NCBI GenBank assembly: GCA_964347455.1
Contig: CAYFYU010000012.1
Location: 6,730-60,224 of the forward strand
Length of the DNA stretch: 53,495 nucleotides
From: an uncultured Spirochaetota bacterium
GTDB lineage: Bacteria; Spirochaetota; B62-G9; DRHN01
Direction of reading: 5' to 3'
Both the position numbers and the translations under genes were made by a program. Positions within the stretch are counted from its first letter, which is position 1. Each line of letters starts with the position of its first letter. Shown in pieces: positions 5,499 through 53,495 of the stretch. The notes below the pieces were generated by a model, which was given only the letters and a program-made list of their open reading frames with translations, was not told the origin of the DNA and searched no databases.

Positions 5499-6359
5499 AT
5501 GATTATCAATCACAACATGAGTGCTATCTTTGCGAACCGAATCCTGAAGTTCAATAACTGGGAGATAAATAAAGATATTGAAAAATTATCTTCCGGTATG
5601 CGGATCAACCGTGCAGGAGATGATGCCTCTGGACTTGCTGTTTCTGAAAAGTTGAGATCCCAGATAATGGGTATGCGTCGTGCAGCGAGAAATGCTGAAG
5701 ATGGGATTTCCTTTATTCAAACGACCGAAGGGTATCTGCAGGAAATTCAGGATGTTCTGCAGAGGATCAGAGAGCTCGCGGTCCAGTCTGCTAACGGTAT
5801 ATACACAGATGAGGATCGAATGCAGATGCAGGTAGAAATTTCTCAGCTTGTCGATGAGGTCGATCGTGTTGCGTCGCACGCTCAGTTTAACGGAATGAAT
5901 ATGCTTACCGGAAGGTTCGCGCGTGCAACAGGGGAAAATACACCAACAGCTTCGATGTGGTTTCACATTGGGGCCAATATGGATCAGAGGGAGCAGGCAT
6001 ATATTGGCACAATGACGTCCAAAGGCCTCAGATTAAAACAGGTGTCTACAGGATCAACCATATCACTATCAACGCCTGCAAAGGCAAACAGGGTAATTGG
6101 TGTTGTCGACCAGGCTTTAATGGCTGTTTCAAAGCAGAGGGCGGATCTCGGGGCGTATCAGAGCAGGTTGGAATTCGCAACCAAGGGACTCATGTCTGGA
6201 TATGAGAATATGCAGGCTTCTGAATCCAGGATACGAGATACCGATATCGCAGAGCAAATGGTCAGCTTTACAAAAAACCAGATATTGGTGCAATCGGCAA
6301 CGGCAATGCTCGCCCAGGCCAATCTGATTCCACAGAGCGTGCTCCAATTGTTTCGTTGA
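5499..6359 (+). CDS. flaB: Flagellar filament core protein FlaB (flagellin), copy 1
   Basis: 286 aa. The N-terminus [14 protein letters not shown]...[21 protein letters not shown] and C-terminus [32 protein letters not shown] are the conserved flagellin D0/D1 regions, with the short spirochaete-type central part. SD CAAGGAGGA lies upstream. Confidence 0.95.
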
Positions 6360-15339: not shown

Positions 15340-15355
15340 TGGCATGTGAATTGCT
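15340..15355 (+). promoter_or_regulatory. Sigma54-type -24/-12 promoter candidate (TGGCATGTGAATTGCT)
   Basis: GG (15341-15342) and GC (15353-15354) are separated by exactly 10 nt. There is one mismatch to TGGCAC-N5-TTGCW. The element ends 22 nt before ATG 15378. Confidence 0.6.
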
Positions 15356-15377: not shown

Positions 15378-16220
15378 ATGGCAGTGACAACAGAAATAAT
15401 AACAGAAAACAATAACTTGAATGCTTATCTTTATCAAATTAGAAATGATAGACTTCTTACAGCAGAAGAAGAAAAAAGTCTCTCAAAGAGGGTAATGAGA
15501 GGAGATAAATTAGCACGGGAAAGCCTCATTAACTCGAATCTTCGACTCGTTGTAAAGATTGCACGAGGTTATCTTACCCATGATATGGAACTGCTCGATC
15601 TTATTCAGGAAGGGAACCTTGGATTGATCAAGGCCGCTGAAAAATTTGATTTTCGAAAAAATGTACGATTCAGCACCTATGCCTCTTTTTGGATAAAGCA
15701 GAGCATTGCCCGAGCTCTCTCAAATAAGAGTCGAATGATTCGTCTCCCTCATAGAAAAGAGGAGAAACTGAGGAAAATTGCTAAAGCGTCGCAGAAGCTC
15801 TCAAAGGTTAATGGCAGTGTACCGGATGCGGGTGAGCTTTCATTGGAAACGAACATCGATGAAAAAGAGATTCGCCGTATACAGAGTCTACCCGATCGAG
15901 TTCTCTCAATAGAATCTACCGATGAACATGAAAATTTTTCGCTGAAGAATGTTCTGGAGGACACGAAGTATAATCCCGATTATATTGTGATGCGAAAATA
16001 CCTGAAGGAAAAAACTTCGGAGATGATGAATATATTGACCGATAAGGAGCGAAAGGTAATTCTCTACCGCTATTCCTTCATGAATGGAAAGAAATACACG
16101 TTAAAAGACATTGGGGAAGAACTCGTCATTTCTCCAGAAACGGTGCGACAGATAGAATTAAAAGCTCTTAAAAAAATACGTGAGCATTTCAGCCATCTAA
16201 AAGAGCTACTTTGGGAATAA
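15378..16220 (+). CDS. Sigma70-family alternative sigma factor (group 2/3, RpoS-like size; no region 1.1)
   Basis: Track ORF is 15339..16220. ATG 15378 lies 6 nt after GGGAG. Region 2 reads DLIQEGNLGLIKAAEKFDFRKNVRFSTYASFWIKQSIARAL. Region 4.2 reads LKDIGEELVISPETVRQIELKALKKIR. Confidence 0.85.
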   Translation: MAVTTEIITENNNLNAYLYQIRNDRLLTAEEEKSLSKRVMRGDKLARESLINSNLRLVVKIARGYLTHDMELLDLIQEGNLGLIKAAEKFDFRKNVRFSTYASFWIKQSIARALSNKSRMIRLPHRKEEKLRKIAKASQKLSKVNGSVPDAGELSLETNIDEKEIRRIQSLPDRVLSIESTDEHENFSLKNVLEDTKYNPDYIVMRKYLKEKTSEMMNILTDKERKVILYRYSFMNGKKYTLKDIGEELVISPETVRQIELKALKKIREHFSHLKELLWE

Positions 16221-20846: not shown

Positions 20847-22406
20847 ATGGCAACCAAAATATCTATCGATCCAATTACAAGGATTGAAGGACATATGAAA
20901 ATAGAAGCAACCGTGGATGGTGGAGTTGTTAAGGATGCACAATGTTCGGGTACTCTATTTCGCGGCATTGAAATAATTCTGCAGGGGAGAGACCCGAGAG
21001 ATGCACAGCGAATAGCGCAACGAGTGTGTGGAGTCTGTCCTGCGGTTCATGGAACAGCTGCTACTCTGAACCTCGACAGTGCATTTGGTATCGCAGATAA
21101 GGTACCTGACAACGGAAGGATAATCCGTAATCTTATTCTTGGTGCAAACTACCTGCAGTCCCATATTTTGCATTTTTATCATCTTACAGCACTTGATTAT
21201 GTTGATGTTACAGCAGTCAGTGATTATAGTGGGGACGATCCGGATATGAAGTCACTGAAGAATTTCATCCTGAGAGGTGAGCTTGCTCCATTCACACCCC
21301 GCTATGAGGGGGGTTACCGATTCGATAAGGAAACAAATCAAAAACTTGTGAAACACTACCTCACCGCACTTGAGATGAGGAGACTTGCCCATGAAATGCT
21401 TACCCTGTTCGGTGGGAAAATGCCTCATAATGCGAGTATCGTTCCTGGCGGAGTTACTGAACATCCGACGATAGATAAGATTACCGGTTTTCTCTGGAGA
21501 CTGAACAGAATACGGGATTTCATCAATGATGTTTATATTCCTGATGTTATAAAGGTTGCTCAGACTTACTCAGAGTATTTTGGCATTGGTTCCGGACCTG
21601 GTAATTTTCTCTCCTTTGGTGTGTTCGATCTTGACGGAAAGAGTAGCGATTATGCTAAGAGGGATCGATTGTTTGAACAGGGCGCCGCTGAGGGTTTGAG
21701 TACACTGCATCCTCTAAATACGGGTAACATTACCGAAAGTGTGAAGCACTCATGGTACGAAGATGATGCACCAAAACATCCACTGGAAGGGGAAACTAAA
21801 CCCAGTGCCCGGAAATCGGACGGCTACAGCTGGATACGATCTCCTCGATACGATGGGAAGGTTTATGAGGTTGGTCCACTTGCACGTTGGGCAGTTTCCT
21901 ATCTTGCCGGAAATAAAAGGGTGAAGACCGCACTTGAGAGCTGCATTGGTGATCTGAAGATTGAAAAAGAAGATTTGAACTCAGTGCTAGGCAGGCATGC
22001 TGCTCGAGCGCTTGATGCAAAGCTCGTTGCAGATGAAATGGCAGATTGGATACTTCAGATTAAGCCGGGGGAACCGGTATGTGCTGAATACGAGATTCCT
22101 GAAGTATCCGAAGGGATGGGAATAGTTGATGGACCGAGAGGAGCACTGGGGCACTGGATACGGATCAAAGACAGGAAAATCGAAAGATATCAGCTCGTTG
22201 TACCGACTACATGGAACGGTGGCCCCAAGGATGAAAGGGGTCAATATGGTCCGATGGAACAGGCACTGCTCGGAACAAAGGTGAAGGATCCAGAAAATCC
22301 TTATGAACTGGTTCGAATCATTCGGTCCTTTGATCCGTGTCTCGCCTGTTCAATCCATACGCTGAATTTAAAGGGAGACGGGATCGCTTCACTGCGGGTT
22401 GTATAG
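20847..22406 (+). CDS. [NiFe]-hydrogenase large subunit
   Basis: 519 aa. The N-terminal motifs are RIEGH and RVCGVCPAVHG. The C-terminal motif DPCLACSIH is followed by a 15-aa extension, which is the substrate for the endopeptidase. Confidence 0.95.
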   Translation: MATKISIDPITRIEGHMKIEATVDGGVVKDAQCSGTLFRGIEIILQGRDPRDAQRIAQRVCGVCPAVHGTAATLNLDSAFGIADKVPDNGRIIRNLILGANYLQSHILHFYHLTALDYVDVTAVSDYSGDDPDMKSLKNFILRGELAPFTPRYEGGYRFDKETNQKLVKHYLTALEMRRLAHEMLTLFGGKMPHNASIVPGGVTEHPTIDKITGFLWRLNRIRDFINDVYIPDVIKVAQTYSEYFGIGSGPGNFLSFGVFDLDGKSSDYAKRDRLFEQGAAEGLSTLHPLNTGNITESVKHSWYEDDAPKHPLEGETKPSARKSDGYSWIRSPRYDGKVYEVGPLARWAVSYLAGNKRVKTALESCIGDLKIEKEDLNSVLGRHAARALDAKLVADEMADWILQIKPGEPVCAEYEIPEVSEGMGIVDGPRGALGHWIRIKDRKIERYQLVVPTTWNGGPKDERGQYGPMEQALLGTKVKDPENPYELVRIIRSFDPCLACSIHTLNLKGDGIASLRVV

Positions 22407-38589: not shown

Positions 38590-40131
38590 GTGGTGGTGTA
38601 TATAATCTTGCAATATGCACTGCCATCCCTCGTCTTTGGTTTAGTAATCGGTTATTTTCTGCGCCGATATATATCAAAACTTAAAATTAATTCCGCGGAG
38701 GTAGCCGCTGATAATATTTTAAAAGAAGCGCAGAAAGAAGCGGAAGCGAAGAAACGTGAAGCAATTCTCGAAACGAAGGATCAGCTCTTTAAAGAAAGAA
38801 GCAACTTCGAAAGGGAAACAAAAGAGAGGAGAGCTGAACTTCAACGATGGGAAAAGCGTCTTCTTCAAAAGGAGGAAAATCTCGATAAGAGATTAGATGT
38901 ACTAGATAGAAAAGATAAATCGTTATCAAACCGGGAGAGGGTGGTAGATGCAAAAGAGGGGGAAATAAAACAAGCTCAGGAAGAAGTTCGAAAAGAGCTT
39001 GAAAGAATTTCCGGCCTCACAGCTTCAGATGCAAAGGATATGCTCATCAAGAGCATGGAGGAGGAAGCGCGTCATGACGCGCAGATCTCGATAAGCAGCA
39101 TTGAGAATGAAGCAAAAGCCGTAGCCGAGAAAAAGTCTCGGGATATTCTCGCCCATACAATTCAACGTCTTGCCTCAGAAATTACATCGGAAATAACCGT
39201 TACCTCGGTTTCACTTCCAAATGACGAAATGAAAGGCAGAATTATAGGAAGAGAGGGGAGAAATATCCGTGCTCTCGAAACACTTACAGGTGTTGATGTT
39301 ATTATCGATGATACACCAGAAGCCGTGGTTATATCGAGTTTCGATCCCGTAAGACGCGAAATTGCACGGATCTCGATGGAGCGGTTGATAGCCGATGGTA
39401 GGATTCATCCTGCACGAATTGAAGAGGTAACCTCAAAAGTTACAAAGGAAGTAAACAAGGTCATCATCGAGGAGGGCGAGAAGGCTGCTTTCGATCTTTC
39501 AATTCAGGGTTTATCTCAAGATATTGTACCGTACGTGGGTCGACTATTTTTCAGGACCTCTTATGGACAGAATATCCTCGCCCACAGTAAGGAAGTTGCC
39601 CATGTTGCAGGTGTCCTCGCTTCCGAAATTGGTGCCAATGTGCAGCTGGCAAAAAGGGGAGGCCTGCTCCATGATATAGGCAAAGCGGTTATAACCGATG
39701 GCGAGGGTAGTCATGCTGTCGTTGGGGGTGAGCTCGCAAAAAAATTCGGGGAATCTCGCGAAGTTGTTAATATCATTGAGTCACACCATATGGACCGAGA
39801 ACCTGAAACTGTAGAAGCGGTTCTCATACAAGCGGCAGATGCGATTTCTGCCTCCCGTCCAGGTGCACGGCGAGAATCGATGGATACTTATATTAAACGA
39901 CTTGAATCTCTTGAGAAAATCGCCGAGGGTTTCGATGGTGTTGAAAAATCTTTCGCCATTCAGGCAGGGCGGGAGATTCGAGTTATAGTAAACAACGACC
40001 GCATTGATGATTCCAAGGCAAAAGAAGTTGCACGGGAAATCGCTAAACGAATCGAAAAGGAACTAAAATACCCTGGAAGAATAAAGGTTACACTGATCAG
40101 GGAAACGAGAATCGTTGAATACGCGAAATAG
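38590..40131 (+). CDS. rny: Ribonuclease Y
   Basis: N-terminal TM, a coiled coil, a KH domain ([26 protein letters not shown]) and an HD domain ([13 protein letters not shown]...LLHDIGKA). The track start is ATG 38557. GTG 38590-38596 after AGGGGA is more likely, because a TTGACT-N17-TAATCT element covers 38528-38556. Confidence 0.9.
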
Positions 40132-45040: not shown

Positions 45041-45763
45041 GTGAATACGATCGTTGTAGAAAGTTTAGTTAAGAGCTTTAAAAAGAGGAAGGTGGTAAAA
45101 GAGGTTAGTTTCAACATTGAAGAGGGTGAAGTCGTTGGGCTGCTTGGTCCAAACGGGGCTGGAAAAACAACGTCTTTTTATATGATTGTAGGATTTATAA
45201 AGGCGGATAAAGGTAACATCAGGCTCAATGATGTGGATATAACCCACGTTCCTATGTTCAAGCGGGCACGTATGGGCATCGGTTATCTGCCTCAAGAGGC
45301 CTCGGTTTTCCAGAAGTTGACGGTTGAGCAGAATATAATGGCTGTTCTTGAAAATACGACTCTACAAAAGAGAGAACGGAAAAGAAAGGTGGGTGAAATA
45401 ATCGGTGAGCTGGGCATAGAGCAGGTTAGAAAACAAAAAGCATTCACTCTCTCAGGTGGTGAAAGGAGAAGAACTGAAATTGCACGGGCCCTCGCAATAG
45501 AGCCAAAATTTCTTCTCCTGGATGAACCTTTTGCAGGGGTTGATCCCATTGCTGTGTTCGATATTCAGAGTATTATCGATAGGTTGAAGAGCAAGGGTCT
45601 CGGAATATTAATAACGGATCATAATGTCAGAGAGACATTGCGAATCACTGATCGTGCTTATATTATGAATGAAGGTGAGATCCTAGTTTCTGGAGGGAGT
45701 GAATATCTGGTTAATAATGAAGAAGCGAAGAGAATATATTTGGGTATCAATTTTACGATTTAG
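45041..45763 (+). CDS. lptB: LPS export ABC transporter ATP-binding protein LptB
   Basis: 240 aa with Walker A GPNGAGKTT, the signature LSGGERRR and Walker B LLLDEPFAG, plus LptB-like GYLPQEASVF. Confidence 0.9.
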   Translation: MNTIVVESLVKSFKKRKVVKEVSFNIEEGEVVGLLGPNGAGKTTSFYMIVGFIKADKGNIRLNDVDITHVPMFKRARMGIGYLPQEASVFQKLTVEQNIMAVLENTTLQKRERKRKVGEIIGELGIEQVRKQKAFTLSGGERRRTEIARALAIEPKFLLLDEPFAGVDPIAVFDIQSIIDRLKSKGLGILITDHNVRETLRITDRAYIMNEGEILVSGGSEYLVNNEEAKRIYLGINFTI

Positions 45764-45836: not shown

Positions 45837-47246
45837 GTGGATCTGAAACCGGAATTACATATCAAACAGACACAGAAATTAATAATGACTCCCCAGCTGC
45901 AGCAAGCGATAAAAATGCTTCAGCTGTCAAACCTTGAGTTAAATCAGGCTATTGAAGAAGAATTAATTGACAATCCTGCACTTGATAAAGAGGACAGACA
46001 GGAATATTCCTTAGATGAGTTGAGTGAAGAGGATCTTTCCCAAAGGATAGAGCAGACCAAGGATGAGAGAATCGGAGAGGATTTCAACGAGGAAACCCTC
46101 TATACTGAACAACCCTATGCATCTCCTGATTACAGCTCTGGTGAAGATAAGAAGAGAGAATTTTTAGAAGGAGCAGTATTCCGTGAGGAAACGCTTAAAG
46201 AATACCTGATGCGACAGTTGCATCTAACAGATATTGGACCGGAAGAGTTGAAAATTGCCGAGATCCTAATCAGCTATATCGATGAGCGGGGATACCTCTC
46301 CATTTCCCTGGAAGTCATATCAGGTGAGTTTTCAATTTCAGAAGAAAGACTTGAAAAAGTTTTGACCATTGTGCAAAGCCTTGACCCACCAGGGGTCGGG
46401 GCACGTGAAATAAAAGAGTGTCTTTTGATTCAGCTAAGGAACGAAGGGAATCATCCAATTGCTGAGAGGATCGTCTCGGAATGTTTAGACGAATTAAGGT
46501 TGAAAAAGTATGATGAGATAGCAAAAAAGTGTAAGATTTCAAAATCGAAACTGCAAGAGGTGATTTCATTAATATCCCAATTGGAACCCTATCCTGGGCG
46601 ACAGTACTATTCTGATGATATCCGATATATTGTTCCAGATGTTATTGTAGAGGAGCGGGACGGTGAATTCGAGGTAATTCCAAATAGCTCCTCCTTACCG
46701 CGCCTAAGAGTAAATCGCTATTTTGAAAATCTTCTCAAGAAGAGCAATATTGAAAAAAGGGTGAAAGAATTTGTTTCTGAGAAAGTAACACGTGCAAGAA
46801 TATTTATGCATTCTATTGAACAAAGAGAGAGCACCTTGCTCAGAGTAATGAAAGCAATCCTTGAACGACAGATAGATTTTTTTGAACAAGGTCCGATGTA
46901 TCTTAAACCAATGATTTTTTAATGATACGGCGACCACCGAGATCTACACGAATCAACGATAAGCAGGATTACTTCCTCAAAATATGTTCAGACTCCTTTC
47001 GGTGTTTACGGTTTAAAATATTTCTTTTCCAATCCTATCCCTGCACAGGGACAGGGAGATTATTCATCAACGAGCATCAAAGAAATAATAAAGGAAATTA
47101 TTGAGAATGAAGAAGGAAAAAAGCATCTCAGTGACCAAAAAATAGTTGAGTTGCTGCAAAAAAGGGGAATAAAAATCGCAAGAAGAACTGTGGCCAAGTA
47201 CAGAAAAGACCTGCATATCTTGCCGTCAAATTTAAGGAGGTCATAA
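45837..47246 (+). pseudogene. rpoN: RNA polymerase sigma-54 factor RpoN; reading frame broken in this assembly by an Illumina adapter string (probably not a biological pseudogene)
   Basis: GTG 45837 gives MDLKPELHIKQTQKLIMTPQLQQAIKMLQLSNLEL (region I). The ORF stops at 46920-46922. The same frame resumes at 46947 with HESTISRITSSKYVQTPFGVYGLKYFF (HTH) and the RpoN box IARRTVAKYR. It ends at TAA 47244-47246, which overlaps the hpf ATG. Confidence 0.9.
46921..46949 (+). other. Exact 29-nt Illumina P5 flow-cell adapter sequence (non-biological)
   Basis: AATGATACGGCGACCACCGAGATCTACAC is read directly at 46921-46949 and is identical over its full length to the P5 oligo. It contributes the TAA and TGA codons that break rpoN. 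Confidence 0.95.
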
Positions 47247-47611
47247 TGAACATTTCAATAATCGGACGTAAGGTAAAGATCACACCTGATGTGAGAAAAT
47301 ATATAGAAAAAAATATGAAAAAACTCGATCATTACGCTGAACATATATATGATTTCAAGCTAATAATAAAGAAGGAGAGACACATTTACTTTGCCGAAGT
47401 GAATATCAATGTAAAGAAGAAGATGATCCACATTTTTGCAAAGACTGCTGACATATTCAGCGTTATCGATACGCTTTACGATAAAATCGAAGTGAAAATG
47501 TTCAGGTATAGAGATAAACTGACCACTAAACGAGTCATACCACTTAAAGAAAGTGTTACTGAAAGAGGGGTGCAACCTGATACACTCCAAAGTCTGCAAG
47601 AGACTGGCTAA
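47246..47611 (+). CDS. hpf: Ribosome hibernation promoting factor / sigma-54 modulation protein (RaiA/HPF family)
   Basis: 121 aa. MNISIIGRKVKITPDVRKYIEKNMKKLDHY is the typical HPF N-terminus. Its position after rpoN is conserved. Confidence 0.85.
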   Translation: MNISIIGRKVKITPDVRKYIEKNMKKLDHYAEHIYDFKLIIKKERHIYFAEVNINVKKKMIHIFAKTADIFSVIDTLYDKIEVKMFRYRDKLTTKRVIPLKESVTERGVQPDTLQSLQETG

Positions 47612-47647: not shown

Positions 47648-48613
47648 ATGGATAGATTAGAAAAAGTTAAAGGCATCACGATTGCAAAACTGCTCGATCT
47701 TGCACGGGAAGGAGATATCCTCCACCTGCGTATTATAACTGGGGAGAAAACTCTTCAAAAAACAATTATGAATTATGATATCAATCGTCCGGGTCTCGCT
47801 CTTGCGGGTGATTATGATTACTTTGATTATGAAAAGCTTCAGGTTTTCGGACGAGGAGAATATCATTACCTACTGAAAATCGTGAATAACGATGAACTGT
47901 CAAGTATTGAGAACTTCTTCAAATATCCCGTTTCCTGCTGTATCTTCTCACACGGCCATGAACCTCCCTCTATTTTTACCGATATGGCCGAGGATGCTGG
48001 AGTTCCCATCCTCGTATCGTCGTTACCGACCAACGTAATGAACACCCGTATTACGAAAATCCTTGAAGATGCCTTTGCACCAAGGACGAGTACTCACGGA
48101 GTTCTTGTTGAGGTATTCGGTGTTGGAATCTTGATAGTCGGAAAAAGCGGTGTTGGTAAGAGTGAAACCGCCTTAGAGCTTATCGAGAGAGGACACCGGC
48201 TCGTTGCTGACGATGTTGTTGATATACGCTCAATATCTGACACTTTCCTTATAGGGAGTGGGGCAAAACTTATTCGGCATCACATGGAAATTCGTGGATT
48301 GGGAATTATTAATATCAAACAGCTTTTTGGTGTTGGAGCAATTAGAGATAAAAAGCAGATACAGCTCGTTGTGAGCCTGGAAGAATGGGATGTAAAAAAA
48401 GAGTATGATAGAATCGGGCTTGAGGAGTCAGTTTATACAATCCTCGGGGTCGAAATTCCCCTTCTTACTGTTCCAGTCAAACCAGGCAGAAATATACCGA
48501 TATTAATTGAAACTGCAGCGATGAACTTCCGCCTCGCAAAACTCGGGTATAATACAGCGAAAGAGCTCAATAGAGAGCTTATGAATCAGATAGAGCAGAA
48601 GAAAAAGGTTTGA
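47648..48613 (+). CDS. hprK: HPr kinase/phosphorylase
   Basis: 321 aa with the P-loop GKSGVGKSETALELIERGHRLVADD and the signature IRGLGIINI. Confidence 0.9.
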   Translation: MDRLEKVKGITIAKLLDLAREGDILHLRIITGEKTLQKTIMNYDINRPGLALAGDYDYFDYEKLQVFGRGEYHYLLKIVNNDELSSIENFFKYPVSCCIFSHGHEPPSIFTDMAEDAGVPILVSSLPTNVMNTRITKILEDAFAPRTSTHGVLVEVFGVGILIVGKSGVGKSETALELIERGHRLVADDVVDIRSISDTFLIGSGAKLIRHHMEIRGLGIINIKQLFGVGAIRDKKQIQLVVSLEEWDVKKEYDRIGLEESVYTILGVEIPLLTVPVKPGRNIPILIETAAMNFRLAKLGYNTAKELNRELMNQIEQKKKV

Positions 48614-50649: not shown

Positions 50650-52386
50650 ATGAAAATCCGAAAACTACTGAAAAAAGAAAATCTTCTCCTTACGATTGTC
50701 ATAATAGTATTTTCATTTTATTTTGCAGCAATAACCTTTGTTATATTCACCGTCGAGCCACTTGAGCTTTTGGAATCTCTCACCCGTAATAAGCTTCTGT
50801 TGATCACCCTGATATTGCTGTTTTCAATCATGTTATTTCTCGTCGTGTACAATGCAATTCAGATAGTAATTGACCGCGTGAAAAATCGGGAGGGATCGAA
50901 GTTCAGATTGAGACTAACACTTTTTTTCCTTCTCATTACTCTGATACCTATTGTACCGCTCTCACTCATTTCAAATAATCTTATCTCAAAAAGTATCAAC
51001 CTATGGTTTGTCAAGGGAATCGAAAGTTCTCTCGTTAACGCATTGGAAGTGTCAAAAGAGCTCTATCAGAAGTTGTCGGAGGAAAGTATTGCTGAATTAG
51101 AGAATCGCTGTGGTGACTGTGATTTGGAAGGAATTGCTGATATAACTTTTAAAAAAATTGACGGTATATTTTCGTTCTCTCCCCTGCTCAATCGGTTCGA
51201 GAAAATATATGTAAAGGATAACCGGGCAGGCACTGACCTTTTGAACTCACTCACAAGCGCCCAACTACCGAGCGATTCATGGAAGAGAATTAATGCAGGA
51301 GATACAGAGTATCTCATAATTCCAGCTAAATCCAATGCCGAAGGTACCCTCTACATTGCACGATCGATACCAAAACAGATAAGAGATTACGCGGGTACAA
51401 TTTCAGACGGACTCCAATACTACCGTACACTCAAAATAGTCAGGCAACCGATGAAAGGTCTCATTATTCTTTTCTTTCTTGTTATTACCCTTCCGTTTAT
51501 TCTACTATCCTTCTATTTGAGCCTCATTATTTCTCGACAGGTTACAGTTCCAATTGGTGAGCTTGCCCGGGCAACACAGAGAGTAGCAGAGGATGATCTC
51601 GAATATTCAATTAGGGTAAGTGCAAAAGATGAGTTGAAGCTACTCATCGATTCGTTCAATAGAATGACCAATGATCTCCGTGTGAATAAGGAGCTTCTTA
51701 AACATTCTGAGAGGAGTGCTGCCTGGCGCGATATTGCAAGAAGGATAGCTCACGAGATAAAGAATCCTCTAACCCCCATAAAACTCTCTGCTGAAAGAAT
51801 ATTGAAACTATACAAAAAGAATGACCGTTATCGAGAGGTTTTGACTAAGGGTATTAACACGATCATTACTGAGGTTCAAAATATTAACGAAATGGTCAAT
51901 GAATTCTCACAGTTCGCTCGCTTTCCGGATACTAAGCTGGGAAAGCATGACATTATTGCAACAATACATGATATATTGGATTTTTTAAGGGATACTCACA
52001 GAGACATCGTATTTAATTTTACCCACGATGAGGAAAGTGTGTATCTTCTGGTCGATGGACCACAAATACGCCGTGCATTGCTAAACGTTATCTACAATAG
52101 TGTTAATGCAGTTCAAGATAGCGGTGTTATATCGGTTGACTGTTATCCTAAGAGTGGGTCGGCTGAAGACAAGAACAAGTACATAGTAGCAATCTCGGAC
52201 AATGGCGGTGGTATTGATTCTGATATTCGCGACAAGATATTTGATCCCTATTTTTCAAAGAATAGTGAGGGCTCGGGACTCGGCCTTGCGATAGTTGAAA
52301 AGATTGTGCTTGACAACAGGGGCCGAATCTGGTTCGAGAGCAAGCTTGGAAAAACAACTTTCTTCATGGAGTTTCAGAGAGTATGA
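50650..52386 (+). CDS. Sensor histidine kinase, NtrY/AtoS-like (multi-TM, HAMP, HisKA, HATPase)
   Basis: ATG 50650. It has N-terminal TM segments, a HAMP-like linker (VPIGELARATQRVAEDDLEY...FNRMTNDL), the H-box RRIAHEIKNPLTPI and ATPase boxes DNGGGI and GSGLGLAIV. Confidence 0.85.
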   Translation: MKIRKLLKKENLLLTIVIIVFSFYFAAITFVIFTVEPLELLESLTRNKLLLITLILLFSIMLFLVVYNAIQIVIDRVKNREGSKFRLRLTLFFLLITLIPIVPLSLISNNLISKSINLWFVKGIESSLVNALEVSKELYQKLSEESIAELENRCGDCDLEGIADITFKKIDGIFSFSPLLNRFEKIYVKDNRAGTDLLNSLTSAQLPSDSWKRINAGDTEYLIIPAKSNAEGTLYIARSIPKQIRDYAGTISDGLQYYRTLKIVRQPMKGLIILFFLVITLPFILLSFYLSLIISRQVTVPIGELARATQRVAEDDLEYSIRVSAKDELKLLIDSFNRMTNDLRVNKELLKHSERSAAWRDIARRIAHEIKNPLTPIKLSAERILKLYKKNDRYREVLTKGINTIITEVQNINEMVNEFSQFARFPDTKLGKHDIIATIHDILDFLRDTHRDIVFNFTHDEESVYLLVDGPQIRRALLNVIYNSVNAVQDSGVISVDCYPKSGSAEDKNKYIVAISDNGGGIDSDIRDKIFDPYFSKNSEGSGLGLAIVEKIVLDNRGRIWFESKLGKTTFFMEFQRV

Positions 52387-53495
52387 AAACAGTCCTTGTC
52401 GTAGACGATGAAGAGAACATCAGAGAGACATTGAAGGATGTATTGGAGGACGAGGGTTATAAGGTATTTAATGCCGAGGACGGCAAGAAAGCCCTTGAAG
52501 TTCTCCACAAGAATTTCGTTGACGTTGTACTTCTCGATCTCTGGCTTCCCAGAATGGGGGGAATAGAAGTTTTACAGCAGATAAAGGGAATGGAGAACGC
52601 GATGCCCGTCATTATCATTTCGGGCCACGGTACGATTGATGCAGCAGTTAAGGCCACAAAGGAGGGTGCTTTTGATTTCATCGAGAAGCCTCTCTCCATT
52701 GATCGTGTTCTTAACGTGATCGGTCATGCGATAAAAATAAACGGGCTCAAAAAGGAAAACATTGCACTCCGCGAAAAGCAGCAGAATACCTATCATATGG
52801 TTCGAGGAAAATCAGTATCTTTCAGAAAAATTGAAAGTCTAATTGACAGCTGTGCAATGAGTAATTCCCGTGTCCTTATAACAGGAGAAAATGGTACGGG
52901 TAAAGAGGTGGTTGCTAGGAGAATACACCAGAAAAGTCAAAGGAGAGATACACCCTTCGTAGCTGTCAATTGCGCTGCTATCCCTCAAACACTCATAGAG
53001 GCTGAGCTGTTTGGGTATCAAAAGGGCGCATTTACCGGTGCTATAAGCGACAAGCGAGGTAAATTTGAAATTGCGGATGGTGGCACTATATTTCTCGACG
53101 AAATTGCGGATATGAGTAGTGAAGCACAGGCAAAAGTACTTCGCGTGCTTGAGGAAATGCAGATTGAGAGAATCGGTGGCGTTACTCCTATAAAGATCGA
53201 TGTCCGGGTTATTGCAGCAACAAACAAGGATCTGTCTGTACAGATAAGAGATGGTAATTTCAGGGAAGACCTGTACTACAGACTTAATGTTGTTCCTATC
53301 CATATCCCTGCACTTCGTGAGAGAAGGGAGGACATTTTTGAGCTCATCCAGTATTATCTGGATTATTTTGCTCATGACAGTAATAGAAAGAAGAAAAAGA
53401 TATCCGCGAATGCACAGGATTTTCTCATAGAAGATTATTCGTGGCCGGGGAATATCAGAGAGTTGAAGAATTTAATCGAACGGCTCACGATTCTC
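52383..53495 (+). CDS. Sigma-54-dependent response regulator (NtrC/AtoC class), 3' end outside the window
   Basis: It is absent from the ORF track because there is no stop in the window. ATG 52383 overlaps the kinase stop (ATGA). The receiver domain reads MKTVLVVDDEENIRE...VVLLDLWLP. The AAA+ domain has GENGTGKE, an intact GAFTGA, FLDEIA and RERREDI. Confidence 0.9.
   Translation, partial: MKTVLVVDDEENIRETLKDVLEDEGYKVFNAEDGKKALEVLHKNFVDVVLLDLWLPRMGGIEVLQQIKGMENAMPVIIISGHGTIDAAVKATKEGAFDFIEKPLSIDRVLNVIGHAIKINGLKKENIALREKQQNTYHMVRGKSVSFRKIESLIDSCAMSNSRVLITGENGTGKEVVARRIHQKSQRRDTPFVAVNCAAIPQTLIEAELFGYQKGAFTGAISDKRGKFEIADGGTIFLDEIADMSSEAQAKVLRVLEEMQIERIGGVTPIKIDVRVIAATNKDLSVQIRDGNFREDLYYRLNVVPIHIPALRERREDIFELIQYYLDYFAHDSNRKKKKISANAQDFLIEDYSWPGNIRELKNLIERLTIL

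Follow-up and report, generated by a model that had tools for sequence, protein, structure and literature searches.

Internal, in-register contamination by the Illumina P5 oligonucleotide splits rpoN in the public record of an uncultured sediment spirochaete

The sigma-54 gene rpoN, as it stands in the 53,495-nt stretch of spirochaete DNA analysed here (the window), is interrupted by adapter contamination that is unusual in being internal and in register, and the interruption represents no biological feature. We consider it highly probable that 26 nt of the gene were overwritten base for base, by technical means, with six thymidines and nt 1-20 of the Illumina P5 oligonucleotide, the organism's own rpoN being almost certainly intact. 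In the more general form, that the interruption is a technical artefact and the gene is intact, the conclusion is close to certain. Mis-priming of P5 at a native 9-mer is the likely origin, while the details of the mixed-cluster mechanism set out below could go either way.

The string AATGATACGGCGACCACCGAGATCTACAC, which is the exact 29-nt Illumina P5 oligonucleotide, lies at 46921-46949 on the + strand, without a mismatch and in a single copy in the window, as had been reported in an earlier examination of the letters and open reading frames alone (the sequence-only reading). It occurred in 0 of 100 dinucleotide-preserving shuffles of the window, even with three mismatches permitted, and the chance expectation for a 29-nt P5 match in the window, as given by these shuffles, is 0. 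The adapter screen which that reading had suggested was performed over the whole window with 21 common adapter, primer and vector oligonucleotides (exact 14-mers, and full-length matches with up to three mismatches), and revealed nothing besides P5. The P5 copy is situated 46.9 kb into the contig, with genome sequence directly 3' of it and with TTTTTT (46915-46920) immediately 5' of it. A composition profile over the site showed nothing distinctive at the scale used.

Translation of 45837-47248 in the rpoN frame gave ...QGPMYLKPMIF, two stops, YGDHRDLHESTISRITSSKY...ARRTVAKYRKDLHILPSNLRRS and a final stop, the segment IF-stop-stop-YGDHRDL between KPM and HESTISR being the sole interruption of the sigma-54 frame. 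The tandem in-frame stops on the + strand occupy 46920-46922 (TAA) and 46923-46925 (TGA); the T of TAA is the last T of the T-run, the stops thus arising at the junction of the T-run and P5, and both halves of rpoN are in one frame. In the list of open reading frames the gene appears as an ORF of 361 aa (45837-46922), followed on the + strand by one of 60 aa (46922-47104) that starts with MIRRPPRST. The latter is spurious, consisting of the adapter translated in another frame, as had already been recognized from the ORF list, and an exact match to its product was absent from a 15-billion-protein collection, so that it provides no separate trace of the artefact.

Pfam analysis placed sigma-54 features on both sides of the interruption. 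The native 5' part of rpoN (45837-46914, + strand), which extends to ...AAA CCA ATG A, contains region I (PF00309, Sigma54_AID; E = 7.9e-18), the core-binding domain (PF04963, Sigma54_CBD; E = 2.6e-62) and the start of the DNA-binding domain (PF04552, Sigma54_DBD). Of this last domain, the first piece matched profile positions 2-50 and the second piece positions 63-159 (E = 1.3e-36 for the latter), and the 12 profile positions missing between them correspond to exactly 12 codons in the record. The native 3' part (46950-47246, + strand), defined by Pfam and by solved structures, carries the remainder of the helix-turn-helix (HTH) and the RpoN box ARRTVAKYR and closes with the stop codon TAA at 47244-47246. 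Thus, region I, the core-binding domain and a DNA-binding domain with HTH and RpoN box are all found in the window, and what the record lacks of a sigma-54 family gene is an uninterrupted reading frame (TAA TGA, 46920-46925); we infer that this frame is intact in the organism itself. In-frame translation and Pfam together bear out the earlier description of an otherwise intact sigma-54 gene that is split by TAA and TGA with its halves in one frame. Alignment to solved, enterobacterial sigma-54 structures was gapless over the site, with 11 residues from KPM to HEST, and the spacing of 11 codons which had been given for the enterobacterial protein is therefore correct. The domain order, the 11-residue KPM...HESTISR spacing and ARRTVAKYR are all shared between the rpoN of the window and proteobacterial sigma-54 (5UI8, 7QV9 and others), and once the 26 nt are restored no difference of weight remains between them.

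The neighbourhood of the gene is conserved as well. It comprises lptB, encoding an ABC ATPase (45041-45763, + strand; PF00005), upstream, and hpf (47246-47611, + strand) and hprK (47648-48613, + strand) downstream, PF02482, PF07475 and PF02603 having been found over hpf and hprK. The rpoN stop codon (47244-47246) overlaps the start of hpf, and the order lptB-rpoN-hpf-hprK is the same in the relatives L007 and L008. An intact enhancer-binding protein and a -24/-12 promoter had also been reported from the window, and this held in part. A sigma-54 activator is indeed present at 52383-53495, with its REC domain, sigma-54 interaction domain and partial lid visible, but it is cut by the end of the window and is not callable as intact, and the -24/-12-like motif is weak by itself, with ∼0.4 expected by chance.

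The sequence that P5 displaced was deduced from relatives and from two sibling contigs. The closest intact RpoN proteins, taken from a 5.8-billion-protein collection, were P0001 and P0002 from JGI metagenomes (88% and 86% identity), which read KPM-TLRDISQSVDL-HESTISR and KPM-TLRDISQILDL-HESTISR, respectively, with a spacing identical to that of the window; D-L-H-E-S-T was unvarying in 12 relatives. At the DNA level the relatives read CCAATG ACT CTG AGG GAT ATT TCA CAG AGT GTT GAT CTT CAC GAATCAACG, and where the window has P5, L007 and L008 have unrelated coding sequence that encodes RDISQSV and RDISQIL. The window matches the relatives' ...AAACCAATGA identically up to 46914. From there on it carries a foreign TTTTTT (46915-46920, + strand), read as the poly-T spacer of P5, at a place where the relatives have C(T/C)CTGA, and then, as the first portion of the 29-mer match, the foreign P5 nt 1-20 (AATGATACGGCGACCACCGA; 46921-46940, + strand) in place of native ...GGGATATTTCACAGAGTGTC.

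The sibling contig L002 (JABAOH010093530.1), which is 99.5-100% identical to the window over three aligned segments, breaks at a T-run corresponding to 46876-46882, shows an NN gap and restarts with GAGTGTCGATCTACACGAATC, the gap being followed by native GAGTGTCGATCTACAC. Its frame after NN, (CA)G AGT GTC GAT CTA CAC, encodes QSVDLH and is the relatives' sequence with synonymous changes, native GAGTGTC standing in L002 against CACCGA in the window. The other sibling, L001 (JABAOF010028573.1; 99.7% identity over the main 9.7-kb segment and 98.7-100% over four shorter ones), carries the 30-mer AATGATACTTCGCCCACCGTCGATCTACAC, which differs from P5 in three substituted bases and in having TC for A; when the alignment was anchored on the right flank, every departure of L001 from P5 equalled the deduced native base. 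Both siblings have GTCGATCTACAC upstream of GAATCAACG, and by this comparison the native sequence ends in ...GTCGATCTACAC. Because L001 and L002 both show GTCGATCTACAC and the relatives keep D-L-H, the 9 nt that finish the apparent adapter (GATCTACAC; 46941-46949, + strand), which close P5 and at the same time spell the codons GAT CTA CAC, can be assigned to the native sequence as well, and they constitute the proposed mis-priming site.

The foreign block is thus 46915-46940, TTTTTT plus P5 nt 1-20, and its 26 nt replace 26 native nt in exact register, with a left boundary that is uncertain by 1-3 nt as the organism's own codon after ATG is itself deduced. The replaced bases would have encoded roughly (T)LRDISQSV of the HTH region, and the segment may be restored as about TLRDISQSVDL, in which SVDL derives from same-species DNA and the remainder from relatives; the native bases at 46915-46933 were taken from relatives of another species. 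An uninterrupted rpoN would then contain ...ATGACNCTGAGGGATATTTCACAGAGTGTCGATCTACAC..., and native reads over the site would be expected to contain ...CCAATGACNCTGAGGGATATTTCACAGAGTGTCGATCTACACGAA.... A protein search for full-length RpoN of the same species returned the 361-aa truncated product and relatives at ≤88% identity, and the 27-nt downstream flank matched L001 and L002 only among metagenome contigs and none among genome contigs. The sequence-only reading had proposed an overwrite of about 29 nt rather than an insertion. The overwrite stands, with the register kept and the spacing of the relatives the same, although its length is 26 nt (46915-46940), and the 6-nt T-run noted 5' of P5 is present at 46915-46920 but belongs to the artefact and is non-native. 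The comparison with rpoN of relatives which it had recommended yields TLRDISQSVDL or TLRDISQILDL at the site, and its view of the gene as a false pseudogene agrees with relatives that are intact at 88% and 86% identity, with sibling contigs that differ at the site and with the native bases kept in L002.

The window, L001 and L002 accordingly present three differing sequences at one site, namely the P5 string, a mosaic of adapter and native bases, and an NN gap. A genuine pseudogene should show the same lesion in independent assemblies and further decay of its flanks; here the three assemblies all differ, and the flanks lie in a single frame, score fully in the domain search and share 88% identity with the nearest intact relative. 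The source of L002 is a pooled assembly, GCA_012974985.1 (JABAOH), from a project on deep-sediment metagenomes of the Gulfs of Kutch and Khambhat that used Illumina HiSeq 4000 sequencing and, for assembly, CLC Genomics Workbench v11 with k = 31 (PMC8319310). The accession of L001 (JABAOF, GCA_012974965.1) adjoins that of L002; the two appear to come from the same sediment project, of which L001 would be a sample-wise assembly, and both are scaffolds in which N runs and NN joins are frequent. The Illumina platform that contamination by P5 presupposes is documented for the project of L002 (HiSeq 4000; PMC8319310), to which the window was tied by 99.5-99.9% identity over aligned segments and by shared exact proteins. 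The organism is an uncultured sediment spirochaete, and its rpoN is almost certainly intact. The hpf product is recorded on three NCBI contigs, and the 361-aa truncated product (P0003, ending in ...KPMIF) on two, the longer of which measures 60,224 bp; the stop therefore lies in the public record, beyond this window.

A scan of public contigs, one genome per species, with the exact P5 29-mer gave at least 120 stretches, with 124 copies among the matches listed. Ninety-three of these 124 copies are of the ordinary kind, situated close to the end of a contig and running on into an index and TruSeq or Nextera read-primer sequence, and nearly all listed copies have a T-run upstream where upstream sequence exists. 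Three short contigs among the matches listed show exactly T10 before P5 and poly-C before T10, the poly-C being read as the dark cycles of a two-colour instrument. Such terminal read-through, which is the subject of UniVec and adaptor screens, has the same P5 and the same preceding poly-T as the window. It differs, however, in lying within ∼200 nt of a contig end, in facing inward and in continuing into index and TruSeq/Nextera read-primer sequence, whereas the copy in the window is internal, adjoins genome directly on its 3' side and takes the place of native bases in register.

Eleven of the 124 listed copies are like that of the window in being internal with genome directly 3' of P5. The run before P5 is exactly T6 in six of the 11 and T10-12 in three, and the reading frame is the same on both sides in eight (L041, L042, L047, L073, L074, L092, L098 and L100, among the matches listed) but not in the other three. 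In the eight frame-keeping overwrites T6 or T10-12 is followed by P5 and then directly by genome, as in the window. There, however, the block is read without a stop as FFNDTATTEIYT or GVDLGGRRIIKK, giving a silent 12-residue substitution, while in the window the frame yields TAA TGA and hence a visible false pseudogene. In L047, a Butyricicoccus aspartokinase, FFNDTATT stands in place of AAL(K/N)AD(F/V)C in a gapless alignment to solved structures, and the P5 3' end GAGATCTACAC (GAG ATC TAC AC) encodes the conserved EIYT. Likewise, the alignment of NDTATTEIY of L073, a Campylobacterales aminotransferase, with NDECYSEIY of 3EZS is gapless; for L074, an oligoendopeptidase, the structure alignment starts past the block. 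In all three checkable cases (the window, L047 and L073) the native sequence agrees with P5 over the final 9-11 nt of the oligonucleotide, and the replacement keeps exact register. The contigs with internal P5 were assembled with MEGAHIT (k141, k127) and SPAdes in unrelated projects, and single reads must therefore carry the block together with both flanks.

The 9-mer GATCTACAC occurs once in the window, both strands considered, with ∼0.4 occurrences expected by chance. The artefact lies on the sole stretch of 9 nt that matches the 3' end of P5, which suggests that this oligonucleotide mis-primed there, and the native match to the last 9 nt of the adapter is probably the reason for the artefact's position. 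According to the mechanism that we propose, the 3' end of P5 would anneal to native GATCTACAC within library inserts and then be extended, the poly-T spacer pointing to the P5 oligonucleotide grafted on the flow cell. The surface P5 and P7 oligonucleotides of Illumina-type flow cells are made with a 5' T10 spacer (PMC11123353, PMC13584795); the run in the window is T6 as against this published T10, and the T6 class is drawn from contig patterns only. Extension would give truncated strands composed of spacer, P5 and downstream genome that could be amplified inside the cluster. In the resulting mixed cluster of truncated and full-length strands, a P7-primed read toward the surface would run through native sequence, the P5 complement and the spacer, until the truncated strands end and signal comes from the full-length strands only, whereupon native calls would resume at the same cycle count. 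To an assembler, reads overwritten in this way would offer an equal-length alternative path that could be accepted. This mixed-cluster mechanism would account for the equal-length replacement, the T-run, the lack of index and read-primer sequence, the recurrence at a single site in multiple assemblies and the mosaic in L001.

Two matches to the last 9 nt of P7 in the window (6231 and 22088) are free of the artefact, and a 9-nt match alone is therefore insufficient. In the literature on adapter contamination and flow-cell internal priming we found no paper describing this mechanism. On balance we lean slightly towards regarding the locus as an example of an Illumina artefact that is systematic and sequence-specific, in which the spacer-bearing surface P5 mis-primes at sites identical to its last 9-11 nt and 26-35 nt are overwritten in register. 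If this is true, codons for D-L-H or E-I-Y-T would be the typical mis-priming sites, the overwritten reads would survive adapter trimming and assemble into contig interiors, and the outcome would be false pseudogenes or silent 12-residue substitutions (FFNDTATTEIYT, GVDLGGRRIIKK) in deposited proteins.

Other origins of the block were weighed against surface mis-priming. An overwrite made by the assembler would require that adapter-ended reads broke the graph, that CLC scaffolded the pieces and that the gap was filled or updated from mapped reads, with the right length arising by luck. The scaffolds L001 and L002, rich in N runs and NN joins with one NN exactly at the site, would fit such a course, as would the use of CLC Genomics Workbench v11 at k = 31 by the project (PMC8319310) and the resemblance of L001 to a consensus drawn column by column from adapter and native reads. 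We nevertheless regard it as unlikely, since the in-register succession of T-run, P5 and genome is also found in MEGAHIT k141 and k127 and SPAdes contigs of unrelated projects, where the k-mers cover the whole block and both flanks, so that the reads themselves carry the block; this speaks against a cause peculiar to scaffolding or consensus updating in CLC. Moreover, the exact length would have to be fortuitous not only here but also in L047 and L073. Somewhat less likely still is mis-priming by P5 in solution while the library was amplified by PCR, or else chimeric ligation, either of which would fuse P5 to the genome downstream of GATCTACAC. The native identity of 9-11 nt to the P5 3' end suits P5 mis-priming of any kind, and Nextera index-primer fragments joined to genome (L068, L105) resemble PCR mis-priming. 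These two resemble the window in that an adapter oligonucleotide is joined to genome at an apparent partial 3'-end match. They differ in comprising the entire index primer (P5, i5 and part of TCGTCGGCAGCGTC) and in showing no in-register return to native sequence; the junction of L068 lies at a contig end. It is the return, in register, to native sequence upstream of the block that fusion in solution leaves unexplained. In addition, molecules mis-primed in solution have no Read 1 primer site, would give no Read 1 and should fail filtering, which counts against this origin.

It is very improbable that the string was planted in the window in silico, perhaps as a control, at some time after the public record had been made. 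The exactly equal length of the replacement would suit a plant of this kind, but the exact 361-aa product ending in ...KPMIF is already recorded for the 60,224-bp NCBI contig, the separate and independent public contig L001 shows a mosaic resembling P5 at this very position, and identical in-register cases exist in other public contigs. We give the least credence, next to none, to a true inactivation of rpoN by inserted or substituted sequence that is identical to P5 by chance. The stops do stand in two public records (P0003 on two contigs). Against this, the chance of an exact 29-nt match to a designed oligonucleotide is essentially zero, three assemblies of one population disagree at this site only, and the flanks are in frame, with no second lesion and 88% identity to intact relatives. 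The same window also holds a sigma-54 activator and the weak -24/-12-like motif (∼0.4 by chance). As the main explanation, natural sequence, planting in silico and an artefact of the assembler alone were each rejected.

The locus offers no biological novelty, and its value for data hygiene is modest. In this genome rpoN should be treated as intact, and it would be wrong to deduce from the record that sigma-54 is absent or that its activator, along with any promoter of the sigma-54 type, is orphaned. Adapter screens that are limited to contig ends or to the read-primer part miss internal, in-register overwrites, and where the frame stays open without a stop these enter protein databases as plausible 12-residue substitutions. 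A T-run followed by P5 in DNA, or the peptides NDTATTEIYT and VDLGGRRII, are candidate screens that would probably catch many of them.

Among the public genome contigs recovered by the scan for the exact P5 29-mer, eight (L041, L042, L047, L073, L074, L092, L098 and L100) carried T-run plus P5 blocks that were free of stop codons and lay within long ORFs, where they encoded the peptide FFNDTATTEIYT or GVDLGGRRIIKK. Through these blocks, deposited genes carry silent substitutions that are encoded by the adapter, and the genes hit include one aspartokinase (L047, Butyricicoccus) and one class-I aminotransferase (L073, Campylobacterales). A different arrangement was present in two further contigs of the scan, L068 and L105, in which P5 was followed by an i5 index and a partial Nextera primer (TCGTCGGCA...) and then directly by genomic sequence; these junctions look like the product of index primer mis-priming during library PCR. 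Within the window, the 9-nt 3' end of Illumina P7, ATACGAGAT, occurred twice on the forward strand (6231-6239 and 22088-22096) as compared with ∼0.4 copies expected by chance, and neither of the two sites showed an adapter overwrite.

Comparison with L001 (JABAOF010028573.1), a near-identical public contig, revealed mismatches that were tightly clustered at positions 39348-39361, 39600-39624, 45484-45520, 50833-50850 and 51507-51567 of the window. Those in lptB, the gene 5' of rpoN, fell at 45484, 45493, 45505, 45517 and 45520, all separated by multiples of three. This pattern appears to represent strain variation at third codon positions rather than error. At one NN of L001 (13656-13657, corresponding to 52722-52759 of the window), 38 nt were repeated on each side, and the other two-N joins in L001 and L002 (JABAOH010093530.1), both CLC scaffolds, were likewise located where the flanking pieces overlap; thus, NN stands for overlapping ends that were left unresolved rather than for a gap of 2 nt.

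The sequence-only reading had also invoked an intact enhancer-binding protein and a −24/−12 promoter elsewhere in the window. The NtrC-type enhancer-binding protein gene (52383-53495, forward strand) indeed encodes a REC domain, a sigma-54 interaction domain containing GAFTGA, and an AAA lid, but it reaches past the window end before its C-terminal DNA-binding part, so that its intactness cannot be called from the window. A −24/−12-like motif, TGGCATGTGAATTGCT, was found at 15340-15355 (forward strand), although with ∼0.4 such motifs expected per window by chance it is weak evidence on its own. It is situated ∼40 nt upstream of a sigma-70-family gene (15378-16220, forward strand; 280 aa) with Pfam regions 1.2, 2, 3 and 4. 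In the Borrelia Rrp2-RpoN-RpoS cascade, sigma-54 drives an alternative sigma-70-family factor, an arrangement of which the motif and the gene downstream of it are reminiscent.

At the 3' end of rpoN, the stop codon shares one base with the start codon of hpf (TAATG, 47244-47248), an overlap suggesting translational coupling of the two genes.
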